Numbered from the stretch's first letter, positions 1 to 62,669 are shown. The stretch: DNA of 64,000 nucleotides from Candidatus Fermentithermobacillus carboniphilus (GCA_018208355.1 CP062796.1:845777-909776); one strand, 5' to 3'. Program-made: numbers and translations. Notes: generated from the sequence alone by a model not told the origin.

Positions 1-894
1 GATCGTCTCCTTGATGGTCTGTACAACAACGGGCCTTTCCTGTTCGGGGATCTCGGGAATCAATGCATACATGCAGATCCGTTCAAACTCCGGGTCAGAA
101 CTTACAGCGTGAACACCCTTAAGCCGCATAAGTTTGCCAACCAATATCGAAGACCTGATCGAAGGCAGGTACTTATTGGCTTTCACTTCCCGGACTTTTC
201 TAACCATGTTGACCACGCGTTTTGCGTCCTCGGGCAATAGATCCGCCTTCGCCATGCATATGGCGCTCTCGGTCTCTTCGTCAAAATTGCCTAGCTCTAT
301 AGTGGCCATCCGGTCCAAGAGAGCGTCGGCGGTCTTTTGGATACCTGCATAATCTCTGGGATTACTTGTGAAAATGGCGGCGAAATCTGGGTGGACTTTT
401 AGATATCCACCATAACCCGATACGAGCGGGAGGGGCAACAAGCGTTCTTCCAAGACTGGCAAGAACACGTTATTGGTCTCAGGCCTTGATCTTGTAAATT
501 CGTCATATATGAGAGTGTAGCCGTTCTTGCAGGCCTCAAGCAGTACTCCATGAGTCCAGTAAAGGCTGGTGCTTTCCTCTGCCCTTACGACAGTGCGGAT
601 GTAGTTGTCCAGCACTTTTTTCCGTATATAGCCCTGGAGGCCCCCAACGAAATCGGAAGCAGCCAAATCGTAATCTCCGTATATGATCATGGCGGGCCGC
701 CCGATTTTCGCTGCAACGTGCATGGCCAGCGTGGTCTTTCCTACTCCGGCAGGCCCCTTGAAATGGATGGGCAAACCAACCTTCACGTAGTCCAACGCGC
801 GCGAGGTTATCTCACGGATATACGGAGTTTCCACAAAGTCTTCTCCAGGTTTGGGTAAAAAGGTGGTGAGGGATTCTTTAATATTCTCGGTCAT
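1..894 (-). CDS. gvpN: Gas vesicle AAA+ ATPase GvpN (3' end beyond window edge)
   Basis: Not in the ORF track; hand translation from ATG at 894 (RBS GAGG) gives MTENIKESLTTFLPKPGEDFVETP...HFKGPAGVGKTTLAMHVA...TLIYDEFTRSRPETNNVFLPVLEE...HPDFAAIFTSNP. Walker A/B and GvpN-typical motifs; downstream of gvpA. Confidence 0.92.
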   Translation of the reverse strand, partial: MTENIKESLTTFLPKPGEDFVETPYIREITSRALDYVKVGLPIHFKGPAGVGKTTLAMHVAAKIGRPAMIIYGDYDLAASDFVGGLQGYIRKKVLDNYIRTVVRAEESTSLYWTHGVLLEACKNGYTLIYDEFTRSRPETNNVFLPVLEERLLPLPLVSGYGGYLKVHPDFAAIFTSNPRDYAGIQKTADALLDRMATIELGNFDEETESAICMAKADLLPEDAKRVVNMVRKVREVKANKYLPSIRSSILVGKLMRLKGVHAVSSDPEFERICMYALIPEIPEQERPVVVQTIKETI

Positions 895-930
895 GTTGTT
901 ATCGACCTCGCCCCATTTCGAATGTACAAT

Positions 931-1305
931 CTAATAAACGATCTCACCCGGCTTTTGCCTGTAAGAAGGCGACAAAGCGGATTGTTGTGATTTCGATGAG
1001 TCGATATCTAGCGGATGATATATAGACGCAACCCTTAACCTGGTGAGCGCGCGATTTTTGTCGATAGTTTTGGAGAGCCTCGCTTGGGCTTTCATGAGGC
1101 GCCGTCTGAATCGCCCGGTAGCCGATTGAATTTTGTCTTTACGCTTTGTTTCTGTTTCTAAAAGCCGGAGCAAGCCGCGGTCGAGAAGCCTTTCTTGCAG
1201 AACCCATCCCTTTTCCGATAGTCCATAATCCTTCATCCTGGCAAGCATAAGGCCGCTTGCGACATGCCGCGTTTTAAGTGTTTTCACCGGTCTCGTAGAC
1301 TGCAT
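931..1305 (-). CDS. Basic hypothetical protein in gas vesicle cluster
   Basis: 124-aa ORF with RBS (GGGGGAG), co-oriented between the coiled-coil gene and gvpN. Confidence 0.65.
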   Translation of the reverse strand: MQSTRPVKTLKTRHVASGLMLARMKDYGLSEKGWVLQERLLDRGLLRLLETETKRKDKIQSATGRFRRRLMKAQARLSKTIDKNRALTRLRVASIYHPLDIDSSKSQQSALSPSYRQKPGEIVY

Positions 1306-1918
1306 GGTGATTTCTCCCCCTATCCCTTAAGAGGCGATCAAGAAGGGTCTTCTCTGTCAATCTCAGATTTTTGACATCTTCAGTCCTTAAAAGTTCGCCT
1401 TTTTTAAGAAGATTTTTAAGTTTTTGATTCAGGCCTTTTATAGCCTTATTGAACGTTCTCAACCTTTGCTCCATATCCAGAAAAGTGCCGAGGATGCGGT
1501 CTGCTTCATTTTCCATCTCGTCTCGTATCTCTTTTAGAACCGCATAAAGATTCTTTTCGTTTGCCTCCAGTACTTTGTTTCTCATTAGGGCCAGCCTGAC
1601 CCGTTCACGTGAAAGGTAATCCTTCAAGATTTCTTCCAGTCGTTTTTGTTCGATCTCCAGTTCGACCCTCTTACTTTCCAGGAGCTGCATGACGTCATCC
1701 ATCATGGCATCGAAATCTTTTTTTCGGAGAGAACAGTTTTTGGCCAAAATTTCTTTGAGCCTGGTACTAACCTCTTCCCTTTCACGGAATGCAGCGGTCA
1801 AATCGGTATTCGCGTCCCGGATAGCGCGGTATGCAGTATCGATGAGAAACCTGATACTCTCTACTTTGGACTCATATGAATCTAATAGCTCGACGATCAA
1901 CTGTTTGATATCGTGCAT
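1274..1918 (-). CDS. Coiled-coil protein in gas vesicle cluster (gvpC position)
   Basis: Probable start ATG 1918 (MHDIKQLIVELLDSYESKV...) with RBS GAGGTGG; E/K/L/R-rich helical sequence directly after gvpA. Confidence 0.7.
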   Translation of the reverse strand: MHDIKQLIVELLDSYESKVESIRFLIDTAYRAIRDANTDLTAAFREREEVSTRLKEILAKNCSLRKKDFDAMMDDVMQLLESKRVELEIEQKRLEEILKDYLSRERVRLALMRNKVLEANEKNLYAVLKEIRDEMENEADRILGTFLDMEQRLRTFNKAIKGLNQKLKNLLKKGELLRTEDVKNLRLTEKTLLDRLLRDRGRNHHAVYETGENT

Positions 1919-2007
1919 CCGGTACCACCTCAAACTGGAGATAGGAATTGGCAAGGTACGCTCTTCACACACGAGGATGCCTTGGCAATTCCCCCCACAG
2001 TGACTCA

Positions 2008-2211
2008 TCAGGCCTCGCTGGTGAGCCCTACCGCTTCGGCATATCTGAGATAGGTCTCCACCGAGGCAACCACGACTCTCGCCTCAATGGCCAAGAGTTC
2101 TAAACCAAGCACGGATACCCTTGCCCACGCATCAATCACAACGCCCTGCGTAAGAATCCTATCGATAACCTCAGCAAGCCCTGAGGGTGCGAGCGCCGTC
2201 TTCACTGCCAT
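2008..2211 (-). CDS. gvpA: Gas vesicle structural protein GvpA
   Basis: [54 protein letters not shown] matches the GvpA signature. Confidence 0.96.
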
Positions 2212-2290
2212 GTCTCCTCACCTCCTTCTAAGGTGGTATGGCGATCATGAGCCGCTTGGCCCCCACCTTTCCGATGGCAAACGGATCGGG

Positions 2291-2506
2291 TCATCCGACC
2301 GGCCGGGCATGCGACCTGTTGAATACCCCTGGTACCGGCTTCTCACAACGCGCCCCGCACTTGGGACAATACCTGTAATTCCTCCAAAACCGCCAGGCCT
2401 CTCCGCAGTTGCTGCAGGTGATAGTCAACCGCTCCCCACACTGCGTGCAGTAAGTTTCGAAGGCAGCAACGGGTCGGCCGCAACTCGGACACTTGATCGC
2501 ACCCAA
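2291..2506 (-). CDS. Double zinc-ribbon protein
   Basis: Four CxxC motifs (CPSC, CTQC, CSNC, CPKC); likely TTG start at 2506 after a G-rich RBS. Confidence 0.75.
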   Translation of the reverse strand: MGAIKCPSCGRPVAAFETYCTQCGERLTITCSNCGEAWRFWRNYRYCPKCGARCEKPVPGVFNRSHARPVG

Positions 2507-2546
2507 TGAAAGCCCCCCTAGATTTACCTCCTGCATTGGTTCGATC

Positions 2547-2577
2547 TAACTTATGTCACCCCTACTTGCCGTGTTAC
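2547..2577 (-). promoter_or_regulatory. SigK-like promoter upstream of the gvp cluster
   Basis: Minus strand GTAACA-N16-CATAAGTTA fits the SigK consensus AC(A/C)-N16-CATAnnnT(A/G). Confidence 0.6.
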
Positions 2578-2800
2578 TATTGACGCTTCTTTGGTATGCG
2601 ACGAAACAATCTCGATGGGGCACGTACAGGCGTTCCTCCCTGCGAAGCAAGCACGACGAGGCCGGGCATACGCGCATGCTCGTGAACCGGGCATTATGAA
2701 AAAAACTAAGACTGACGGTACGCCGGCAGGTGAAACTCAAGGCTTCTTCGCCTCGGCAAGCCGCGATGCCCTGTCAGACTTCACTCAACCCTCAGATAGG

Positions 2801-3211
2801 TCATTGCTCAACTAACTGTTGAGGAACACCGTCAAGTTCGTTGTCCGTGTCAGGAGTATCCTGCGGGCTATCCCTACTCGGTGCTGACTCCTCTTCTCTC
2901 TTCTCTGAGTTTGGAGGGACATATTCAACTATTTTGAGCGTCCCCACTTCCACAAAAGTCGGAGCCGAACCGCCCACTGGTTCCTGCTGTCTGGTAGACA
3001 AACCTTCTCGAGGCTTTTGCACGAATATGGTAAGCCCGTTTGCGCTCTGCCTCACCGTCGGCGCCCCTGAACATGAGATAATAAGCCAGATGGCCCTGAG
3101 CTTTGCTTTGCAGATCCGGATGAACCTCTTAAACCCTTGTCGTGAGCGTTCAAGAACTTCTTTTACCCCATGCACCGCCCAACCGTCGTCCCGAGTTCCT
3201 CTCAAGTGCAT
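2801..3211 (-). CDS. Hypothetical protein
   Basis: ATG with GGGGGAG RBS, co-oriented with neighbours; no family recognised. Confidence 0.5.
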   Translation of the reverse strand: MHLRGTRDDGWAVHGVKEVLERSRQGFKRFIRICKAKLRAIWLIISCSGAPTVRQSANGLTIFVQKPREGLSTRQQEPVGGSAPTFVEVGTLKIVEYVPPNSEKREEESAPSRDSPQDTPDTDNELDGVPQQLVEQ

Positions 3212-3281
3212 CTCCCCCAATCCAAGTCATAAATATTGTGGAGAGAACAGGAGTGAGCCTGTCTCTCCACACCTCGGGACC

Positions 3282-3827
3282 TTACGGGTCGATAGGATTG
3301 TCTACGGGGTTCGGTACATCGGGATCCAGCACTACTTTGACACTCTTGAGCTGGCAAGTTTGACACGTGAACGGACCTATCTGAATCTGGCCGAACACCG
3401 ACCCACCGCCGGGAGTAATCCCCGTTCCGGTGCAAGTCAAAGTAGGCGTTGTGCAACCTCCTGCAGTGACCTTGATCTGGTTGGTCGGCCCGAGAACTCC
3501 CTGAACAGTCCTAGTTGCCTGTAGGAGCACAACACTGTTATCGTCAAGGAGCACGGTGAAGTATATTGTTGCGTTGAACTGCACCTCGAGCGTCCCGGCA
3601 ACATCTACTATCTGCATAGTACCCGGGAAAATGGTTGCCGCACAACTTATGATCTGCTGGATGGTTCTTCCCGCAGGAGCGGCTACAGTGATAACTCCGG
3701 ATGTCGTAGCCTGGAAACTCTTCGTGACCAGTACCTCTACAGAACACAACCGGACCGCTGAACTAGGTGTTCCTGCGAACGTCTGCAGAAAGGAATCCGC
3801 GCCTGGTGTCAGGTTTACATCTCCCAT
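3282..3827 (-). CDS. Thr/Val/Gly/Cys-rich beta-type protein, possible spore coat or exosporium protein
   Basis: Strong RBS, 181 aa, no signal peptide, several Cys, SigK-like promoter upstream; function inferred. Confidence 0.6.
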   Translation of the reverse strand: MGDVNLTPGADSFLQTFAGTPSSAVRLCSVEVLVTKSFQATTSGVITVAAPAGRTIQQIISCAATIFPGTMQIVDVAGTLEVQFNATIYFTVLLDDNSVVLLQATRTVQGVLGPTNQIKVTAGGCTTPTLTCTGTGITPGGGSVFGQIQIGPFTCQTCQLKSVKVVLDPDVPNPVDNPIDP

Positions 3828-3862
3828 CGCTCTCCCTCCCTTCTTTCATCTCCGAGTCGCTA

Positions 3863-3893
3863 CATAATACGCACGAGGGGTCGACGGTGTTAC
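3863..3893 (-). promoter_or_regulatory. SigK-like promoter
   Basis: Minus strand GTAACA-N16-CGTATTATG; same GTAACAC element as the gvp promoter, one mismatch in the -10 box. Confidence 0.45.
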
Positions 3894-4079
3894 GTAAACT
3901 TGAGACACACAATCTCAGTGAAACCGGGCAAAGCCAACAAAACGCAACATATTACGTAAAGCCCGCCTCAGGGGCAAGGCAGATGTACTTCTTAACGGTG
4001 TTGCGGTCGAGGCCGATCTGTAATACATCGACATACTCACATTCGAAGCCCAGGTAGACACTCAAAAGACACTCTTCGG

Positions 4080-4700
4080 TTGCCGGATGTAGGAGTACAG
4101 AGCATCTGTGGCGTATTCATTTATCCAGAGGTGACATCATTGACTGAACAAGAACGCCTGTTTTGGGTAAGTAAGGCCATGGCTCTCGGAGCATCCCAGG
4201 CATGGATGATTGCCATCGACGATGTTGTGATGGACCCAAGGGCCCGCCTGAAATGCCGCGTTCCGCTGTGTTCGAGCTTCGGCAAGAACCTCATGTGTCC
4301 TCCGTTCCTCCTTTCATACAGGGAGAGCGAGGAAGCGATCAGGAGGTATAACTGGGGTTTGCTGGTAAAGCTAGAAGTACAGGCCATAATTGAAAGAGAC
4401 CGTGACTTAATCCACGCCGGTGCACTTGATCTCCACAAGATCATAAATCAGCTGGAAAAGGTAGCATTCGAGAGAGGGTACAGGTTTGCTGCCGGGCTAA
4501 TCGGCGGGACGTGCAGACTGTGTGACAGGTGCGCGGCAGAAACGGGAGGAACCATTTGCAGGCATCCGTTTGAAGCAAGGCCTTCGATGGAAGCAATGGG
4601 CATTGATGTAGTGGCTACACTTGAGCGGCTAGGTATCGAAGCACCAGAATTTCCCCCGAGGGACAAAGTGGAGTGGATCGGCCTGCTATTGCTCGAGTAG
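4080..4700 (+). CDS. DUF2284 family predicted metal-binding protein
   Basis: RLKCRVPLCSSFGKNLMCPP, GGTCRLCDRC, CRHPFEARPSMEAMGIDV; start uncertain. Confidence 0.85.
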   Translation: MPDVGVQSICGVFIYPEVTSLTEQERLFWVSKAMALGASQAWMIAIDDVVMDPRARLKCRVPLCSSFGKNLMCPPFLLSYRESEEAIRRYNWGLLVKLEVQAIIERDRDLIHAGALDLHKIINQLEKVAFERGYRFAAGLIGGTCRLCDRCAAETGGTICRHPFEARPSMEAMGIDVVATLERLGIEAPEFPPRDKVEWIGLLLLE

Positions 4701-62332: not shown

Positions 62333-62360
62333 ACCCTTCTGACGGCGGTTTCATATAGTA
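62333..62360 (+). promoter_or_regulatory. SigK-like promoter
   Basis: ACC-N16-CATATAGTA, 31 bp before the ferritin-like gene. Confidence 0.5.
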
Positions 62361-62390
62361 GTGTAGATAGTAGACGAGGGGTGAACATCT

Positions 62391-62669
62391 TTGTCCGAGG
62401 AACTAGCGATGCGTTATGGGGACCAGGACCAAGCAACCGTGCTTGAAATGCTTCGGGAAGACCTCATAGGAGAACTTCAAGCCATAAATCAGTATGAACG
62501 ACATGCGAGGACGACCTCTTACGCACCCGCCCGACAGCTTTTCCAGGAAATTGCCGATGATGAAAAACACCACGTAGCCGAGCTGCTAAGGATGATAGCA
62601 CAGCTTGATAGAGTACAGGCCGAAGAGCTGAGAAAGGCTTTCATGTACAGTCTAGGAAAGCGTGATTAG
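62391..62669 (+). CDS. Small half-ferritin/rubrerythrin-like protein
   Basis: DLIGELQAINQYERH...IADDEKHHVAEL di-iron motifs; RBS GAGGGG. Confidence 0.85.
   Translation: MSEELAMRYGDQDQATVLEMLREDLIGELQAINQYERHARTTSYAPARQLFQEIADDEKHHVAELLRMIAQLDRVQAEELRKAFMYSLGKRD

Follow-up and report, generated by a model that had tools for sequence, protein, structure and literature searches.

A gas vesicle operon behind a SigK-type promoter in Candidatus Fermentithermobacillus carboniphilus, and recurrence of this promoter type in gvpA-bearing Bacillota

The stretch of DNA analyzed here (the window) spans 64,000 nucleotides of the genome of Candidatus Fermentithermobacillus carboniphilus (GCA_018208355.1, CP062796.1:845777-909776). 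Its first 3893 positions hold the head of a gas vesicle (gvp) operon and, upstream of it, an orphan gene for a protein of 181 amino acids (aa), both on the minus strand. Each is preceded by a site with the appearance of a promoter for SigK, the late mother-cell sigma factor. The genes and sites are read directly from the sequence, a sigK gene is present in the same genome, and the promoter type recurs before gvpA, the gene of the major shell protein, in other gvp-bearing spore-formers. This comparison gives good support to a connection of gas vesicles with late sporulation, which is unproven for the host locus itself.

The host genome is a metagenome-assembled genome (MAG) of an endospore-forming member of the Bacillota, consisting of a single contig of 2,316,832 bases with a G+C content of 54% and a completeness of 94.5%. 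Among public runs, the best DNA match to the window comes from a coal metagenome. Near-identical DNA is also present in digester, sludge, subsurface and hot-spring metagenomes.

Gene content and layout of the operon

The shell protein gene gvpA (2008..2211, minus strand) encodes 67 aa and matches PF00741 (2e-13). At the edge of the window, gvpN (1..894, minus strand) is recognized by Pfam AAA_5 (3.2e-17). The first 298 of its 312 residues lie inside the window, and the gene ends 44 nt beyond the window start (full open reading frame, ORF, at L002 15733-16671). Both genes had been named in a first-pass annotation of the locus.

That annotation also took the 3.9 kb as one module containing genes never linked to gas vesicles, and this part of it has to be revised. 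Two transcription units are present instead, and the gvp operon runs on along the minus strand for ~5.8 kb past the window start, with genes for Hsp20, a CDC48-type AAA protein (711 aa), gvpF, G, J, K, L, a J-like gene and gvpO, in this order. The complete operon counts 14 genes over ~8.4 kb; the window therefore carries only its head. Besides GvpA, two further J-like products match PF00741, while GvpL_GvpF (twice), GvpG, GvpK and GvpO all score above the Pfam cut-offs.

Between gvpA and gvpN lie two further genes. The first is a helical 244-aa ORF (1274..2008, minus strand), for which a start at 1918, giving 214 aa, is likelier. Its Pfam search returned nothing above the cut-off; the Atlas contains the 214-aa form, and the nearest clusters there are hypothetical proteins of Chloroflexota, Bacteroidota and Chlorobiota. 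The second, a 124-aa gene of no known family (931..1305, minus strand), has no match in Pfam or NCBIfam. Both are nevertheless found in the same place in nine other gvp clusters each: tblastn matches to the 244-aa gene lie directly downstream of gvpA in all nine loci that cover this region, and those to the 124-aa gene lie just upstream of gvpN (L025-L028, L030-L034). Judged by this conserved position, they are ordinary members of the cluster type and not sporulation genes.

The first gene of the operon encodes a double zinc ribbon (2291..2536, minus strand; Pfam DZR 2.1e-9, Zn_Ribbon_1 2.3e-8). Its product counts 81 aa from the ATG at 2536 and 71 aa from an in-frame TTG at 2506, and the latter, preceded by a G-rich ribosome site, is more likely to be the start and gives a leader of ~35 nt. 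One related cluster, L031, has a zinc-ribbon-like stretch at its far end as well.

Upstream, a gap of 745 nt (2537-3281) separates the two units. It contains a 139-aa ORF (2801-3220, minus strand) that passes a crude codon-usage test and is treated as doubtful, as it has no family in Pfam or NCBIfam and no homologue in any fetched locus. Two strain-specific indels are located just downstream of it, in 2579-2800. An Rfam search over positions 1-4300 gave nothing at E up to 1.

At ~8.1-9.0 kb beyond the window start, next to the distal end of the gvp region, a plus-strand gene (L002 6800-7630) encodes a 276-aa protein with a GAF domain and a helix-turn-helix (HTH). It adjoins an ABC1-kinase gene and a phasin-like 102-aa gene. 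The GAF-plus-HTH protein is a candidate regulator of the gvp cluster.

Promoter-like sites and their counterparts in gvpA-bearing genomes

The SigK-type site before the gvp operon (site 1; 2548..2578, minus strand) is composed of a -35 hexamer (2578..2573), a 16-nt spacer (2572..2557) and a -10 nonamer (2556..2548). Seen as a SigK promoter, the AC of the -35 box is separated by 17 nt from the CATA-NNN-T-A of the -10 box, which is a full consensus fit. The site lies 12 nt upstream of the zinc-ribbon ATG. Before the 181-aa gene, a second site (site 2; 3863..3893, minus strand) has the same hexamer (3893..3888) and again a 16-nt spacer, followed by a -10 box at 3871..3863 that is one letter off CATA. 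Both sites are exactly where the first-pass annotation had placed them. At both, the letter preceding AC is A; hence, neither the ATA of a SigE-type box nor the G of a SigA-type box is formed.

Sporulation genes were searched for with profiles in the host genome. Spo0A is present with 406.5 bits (cut-off 200), and a SigK candidate reaches 302.7 with NF004471 (cut-off 252); its gene is distinct from that of SigE. SigE, SigG and SigH all exceed their family cut-offs. The SigF candidate of this genome stays well below them. The genome also encodes SpoIVA, SpoIID, SpoIIIAA, SpoIIID, SpoVT and CotJC, as well as a SipL-like protein with three SPOCS domains and an SH3 domain. Sporulation genes and a gvp cluster are combined in this MAG, as in Desulfofarcimen (Desulfotomaculum) acetoxidans and other vacuolate anaerobic endospore-formers.

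According to Saujet et al., SigE and SigK share their -10 box and differ at -35, with ATA for the former and AC for the latter (PMC3789822), and Eichenberger et al. argue that the consensus sequences should hold across endospore-formers (PMC517825). Site 1 resembles the SigK promoters described for Bacillus subtilis and Clostridioides difficile (dpaA/spoVF, cot genes, sigK P2) in its AC at -35, its CATA-NNN-T and its comparable spacing.

The conservation of the motif was surveyed in 400 other genomes of the phylum. A gvpA gene was found in 13 of them, at 18 loci, and the region within 200 nt upstream was scanned for AC, 16-18 nt, CATA, 3 nt and T. On the sense strand, the pattern precedes gvpA at 11 of the 18 loci, in 9 of the 13 genomes and 6 of the 10 families, so the promoter type proposed for the window is indeed found elsewhere. 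The antisense control gave a single match among the 18 loci, dinucleotide shuffles of the same upstream regions gave a mean of 0.47 and a maximum of 3, and other 200-nt windows of the same loci matched in 20 of 468 cases (4.3%). Binomial P values are 2e-11 for loci, 5e-9 for genomes and 3e-5 for families; the last is the fair figure because kin are not independent.

Two sporulation genes, present in all 13 genomes, served for comparison: dpaA is a SigK gene and spoIVA is a SigE gene. The SigK-type pattern was found upstream of dpaA in 12 of the 13 genomes (none on the antisense strand) and upstream of spoIVA in only one. The ATA-type pattern of SigE, on the contrary, was absent from all 18 gvpA and all 13 dpaA upstream regions, and present in three of the 13 of spoIVA. 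Judged by these patterns, the gvpA promoter behaves like that of dpaA and unlike that of spoIVA.

The individual gvpA sites are uniform in spacing, with 17 nt between AC and CATA in nine of the 11 and 16 nt in the other two. AC is preceded by C or A in all of them and never by the G of a sigma-70 -35 box, and the spacers share no sequence, even inside a family. Among close kin of the host, gvpA was found in just 1 of 40 relatives (G037, which belongs to another family); the sole match upstream of it, at a distance of 434 nt, is off-spacing and was left out of the counts.

The sigK gene itself was found intact in nine of the 13 genomes, split in two of them, and not found in two fragmented ones (83-86% complete). 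In B. subtilis, sigK is likewise split in two pieces. In G322 (C1:1687410-1691783), 3.7 kb separate the N-terminal half from the C-terminal one; in G426 the two halves belong to different contigs, and in G186 (C1:860430, 1386296) they are on opposite strands with ~526 kb between them. These split genes look like the result of skin-type intervening elements.

The sites could also be real mother-cell promoters that are read earlier, by SigE, or by SigE together with SigK, in which case vesicles would be formed from engulfment onwards. The -10 box, common to both factors, is compatible with this (PMC3789822). The host cotJ operon carries AC-N17-CATA-NNN-T, and the sipL-like gene also has a box of the AC type. 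The B. subtilis counterparts of these two are SigE genes. However, the -35 box is AC and not ATA at the sites discussed here, no gvpA locus of the survey has the ATA type, and the host does possess clear promoters of that type, with ATA at -35 and a CATA-type -10 box, before spoIID and spoIIIAA (those of spoIVA and spoIIID are less clean, and spoVT has a forespore-type promoter). Furthermore, the cotJ-like operon of C. difficile is SigK-dependent according to Saujet et al. (PMC3789822). This reading is considered improbable, the least probable of the alternatives weighed here.

In the host, the AC-type site of the sipL-like gene (G000:C1:301165-302757, minus strand) has its CATA box 46 nt upstream of the called start. 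A similar site lies 34 nt upstream of a gene for a protein with two LysM domains (G000:C1:223169-224011, plus strand). Both are candidates for the same late set of mother-cell genes.

The 181-aa gene and RNA from a digester community

The 181-aa gene (3282..3827, minus strand) forms a single-gene unit and encodes an all-beta protein of no known family. Site 2 is situated ~36 nt upstream of its ATG (3827). Relatives are rare: 11 were found among 5.8 billion proteins and none in 60 related genomes, and two distant homologues (28% identity) were detected among 209 genomes of the class. Searches of Pfam, NCBIfam, PDB and profiles gave no match.

Five homologue loci were readable upstream. All five have, by eye, an AC box followed 16-18 nt downstream by a CATA-like box, and their distance to the start codon is about that seen in the window. 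Three of the five conform to the strict SigK-type pattern, the locus of one of the two distant homologues among them; that of the other distant homologue misses it by one letter. No gvp gene is present on the homologue contigs, of which the three from metagenomes are short (1-2.6 kb) and offer little context, and in G190, which has a distant homologue, no gvpA match was obtained. The inclusion of this gene in a gas vesicle module, as first proposed, is thus not borne out: elsewhere it is not beside gvp genes, and it is a separate unit with a conserved promoter of its own.

The AlphaFold2 model of the protein is a confident beta sandwich (pLDDT 82.8). The nearest predicted models in the Atlas belong to SipL/SPOCS and CotE clusters (TM 0.55-0.59), and by features the Atlas neighbors are CryBP1-type clusters. 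Foldseek with this model found no solved structure at an E-value limit of 0.001, and the closest solved structure in VIA is an alpha-crystallin domain, with a Z of 5.7. With the 11 family members, neither SipL (PF12673) nor CotE (PF10628) nor any other Pfam family was found at E up to 10, and hhalign against the SipL-like protein of the host gave a probability of 0.14. As a lead, the gene is possibly a separate late mother-cell gene for a coat-type protein.

RNA contigs are available from two metatranscriptome runs (X19 and X20) of one digester study; they were assembled from bulk community RNA. Within a stretch of 19.9 kb, gvpA and the 181-aa gene are the best-represented parts, and only few other pieces are present, at depths of 2.5-6.6. 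The gvpA contigs (1971-2219 and 1979-2260) show no differing letter and have depths of 31.3 (X19) and 10.4 (X20), and those of the 181-aa gene (3284-3844 and 3257-3840), with 8 and 19 letter differences, reach 32.1 and 10.1. The similarity of these depths is only a hint, because contig depth is a poor measure of level, and the contigs, from this one study, reveal no starts, strands or levels. Over the 181-aa gene, the RNA contigs end 12-16 nt short of the predicted start site, and DNA contigs run on. Most of the gvp operon has no RNA contig cover in the two runs, which proves nothing.

Just after the gvpA stop codon, a hairpin is predicted (1934..2001, minus strand) with a 13-bp perfect inner stem and a folding energy of -27.9 kcal/mol; its z-score is only -1.1. 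With a start of the next gene at 1918, the hairpin would fall in a 90-nt intergenic gap. Both gvpA RNA contigs end inside it, at 1971 and 1979. It is possibly a 3' stabilizer or attenuator that keeps gvpA RNA in excess, a weak suggestion at present.

For the 181-aa gene alone, site 2 could be a SigA promoter with an 18-nt spacer, driving an abundant surface or stress protein of vegetative cells that has nothing to do with spores. The site scores 9/12 as a sigma-70 promoter with this spacer, and its -10 box departs from the CATA consensus, with G in place of the first A; both points weigh against its assignment to SigK. The alpha-crystallin match and the RNA contigs in a digester community would also suit such a protein. 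The homologue loci, on the contrary, keep AC at -35 and not a sigma-70 hexamer, more than half of the readable ones fit the strict SigK-type pattern, and the Atlas neighbors are clusters of the coat proteins SipL and CotE. A vegetative SigA gene is therefore thought unlikely, if somewhat less so than transcription of the sites by SigE.

Origin of the cluster and a putative role beside the spore

GvpN is 49-57% identical to the GvpN of 12 gvp clusters, and the nearest ones are found in Dehalococcoidia, Chloroflexi, 'Acetothermia' and one 'Clostridia' MAG. These clusters have the gene order of the window: gvpA, the 244-aa gene, the 124-aa gene, gvpN, Hsp20, AAA, F, G, J, K, L, J-like and O. The AAA protein is 63-69% identical between the window operon and the Dehalococcoidia-type clusters. 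Of the nine loci with the 244-aa and 124-aa genes, nearly all come from MAGs labelled Dehalococcoidia or Chloroflexi, groups not known to form spores. Among nine clusters of this gene order, eight of them from non-Bacillota MAGs by title, none has the SigK-type pattern before gvpA.

The differences are concentrated at the head of the operon. Directly upstream of gvpA, L025-L031 and L034 have a small excisionase/MerR-like HTH gene (read by eye), where the window has the zinc-ribbon gene and the SigK-type site. The Dehalococcoidia-type clusters lack the zinc-ribbon and 181-aa genes at the corresponding position, and in them the 244-aa and 124-aa genes are separated by an additional ~1.2 kb. Non-spore-formers share the cluster type and have an HTH gene before gvpA instead, so that the sporulation promoter seems to be a rewiring that followed the lateral acquisition of the gvp operon.

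SigK-driven transcription of this laterally acquired operon in the mother cell is, in our judgment, probable, and the most likely mechanism. Several observations weigh against it, and a number of them would suit a different explanation, in which site 1 is a chance match and the operon is vegetative, transcribed from an unrecognised promoter, for example through the GAF-plus-HTH regulator, and serving ordinary buoyancy of the cell. The first is the frequency of the pattern in the host genome. Counted on both strands, there are 43 matches to the strict B. subtilis-type pattern. A looser pattern, scanned in 1234 upstream regions, was found 22 times in sense and 27 times in antisense orientation, and two further versions gave 4 versus 7 and 14 versus 15. 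The consensus is not enriched in this genome in any of the three versions, and the similar counts on both strands imply a chance match of ~2% per upstream region. The motif alone cannot find a SigK regulon here: the genes downstream of 8 of the 14 pattern matches scanned are mixed and form no clear regulon (the two-LysM protein, a trypsin-like peptidase, a double P-loop NTPase, an unknown 94-aa protein, RNase HII, YitT, WecG and GntR). Moreover, any CATA-NNN-T box also includes the sigma-70 -10 core TA-NNN-T.

Other points concern the position of site 1 and the transcripts. Site 1 lies 337 nt upstream of gvpA, with the zinc-ribbon ORF in between, while in other Bacillota the pattern is ~50-115 nt upstream of gvpA itself. 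The gvpA RNA contigs reach 49 nt upstream of the gene, so that this RNA begins further up, and they stop short of site 1; bulk metatranscriptomes cannot tell which cells made the RNA. In both runs, RNA contigs also cover the GAF-plus-HTH gene. The cluster type derives from non-spore-formers, and since its closest relatives belong to non-sporulating organisms, gvp genes need no sporulation context. Four of the 13 surveyed genomes lack the strict pattern, two with near misses (one with the -35 hexamer of the window and a one-letter change in the -10 box) and two without. Finally, the SigK candidate of the host is slightly below the TIGR02846 cut-off (295.6 versus 298.65), and dpaA and yabG, sought as SigK controls within this genome (94.5% complete, as noted), were not found. 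All 13 other gvp-bearing genomes, by contrast, have dpaA.

Against a vegetative operon behind a chance match stand the lack of a sigma-70-like site upstream of the operon (2212-2800) at the scan threshold and, above all, the recurrence of the promoter type before gvpA and dpaA in the same genomes, compared with 4.3% in other windows of the gvpA loci. It is this recurrence that lifts site 1 above chance; the host genome alone hardly does so, even if only three of the 43 strict matches are fully intergenic, site 1 among them, and the hexamer of the two sites followed by CATA after 15-17 nt occurs four times. The chance explanation is accordingly regarded as rather unlikely, although it is the strongest of the alternatives.

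Another of the three intergenic strict matches is located 31 nt upstream of the start of a gene elsewhere in the window (62333-62669, plus strand). It encodes a 92-aa ferritin-like protein of the EncB encapsulin-cargo family (NF058679, 1.4e-20, below the cut-off). This EncB-like gene may be a sporulation-timed gene for iron storage or for an encapsulin.

Microscopists have observed gas vacuoles next to the spores of Desulfotomaculum-type bacteria since the 1970s, and these have been proposed as a means of dispersal for spore-formers of the deep subsurface. The statement of the first-pass annotation that some anaerobic spore-formers carry them is on record: they lie next to the spores within the sporulating mother cells of D. 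acetoxidans (PMC3035247) and by the spores of Desulfosporosinus cupriresistens, in a report that also refers to Desulfallas sapomandens and 'Desulforudis audaxviator' (PMC12739157). In the accessible text, these reports consist of microscopy and gene lists and name no promoter or sigma factor; for the uncultured host described here, on the contrary, the evidence is at the promoter level.

Conversely, gvp genes are not mentioned in the main text available of the SigK regulon papers (PMC3789822, PMC517825), supplementary tables aside. No publication linking gvp genes to SigK or to the mother cell of endospore-formers was found in a search of the main texts of freely accessible papers. The matches for gas vesicles with sporulation or sigK concern Streptomyces, other actinobacteria or Microcystis. 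Among Bacillota spore-formers, the gvp cluster of Bacillus megaterium has a gene set different from that of the window. In the survey, no SigK-type pattern was found upstream of either gvpA copy of G550, the one genome with two close copies and a G+C content of 38-40%.

In the mechanism proposed, SigK-RNA polymerase would transcribe both units in the mother cell, late in sporulation, and the gas vesicles would consequently be built beside the maturing spore. The hairpin after gvpA may keep the message of the shell protein in excess over that of the assembly genes, and the vesicles may make the sporangium, or the spore once released, buoyant. We infer the use of the site by SigK, the timing, the compartment and the role in buoyancy. 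Of the mother-cell gas vesicle module of the first-pass annotation, the link to SigK and late sporulation is supported by the comparison, and the single 3.9-kb unit with genes new to gas vesicles is not supported.

The resemblance of gvpA to dpaA in the survey is the main result, and it reaches beyond the window. Across endospore-forming Bacillota, gas vesicles may belong to the SigK regulon, as a late mother-cell organelle for the flotation or dispersal of sporangia or free spores and not one of the vegetative cell, with lateral gvp clusters, even those from non-spore-formers, being rewired by the gain of a SigK promoter; for this generalization, the arguments on the two sides are about balanced. 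If it is true, the gas vacuoles beside spores would receive a regulatory link, and an old cytological curiosity would become a testable developmental circuit. It would also predict which uncultured spore-formers make buoyant spores. A whole organelle would have been added to the mother-cell program, and the operon would be a case of laterally acquired genes plugged into a developmental sigma factor of the host. Such promoters would, moreover, be natural ones for the engineering of gas vesicle reporters, switched on in a defined cell type.

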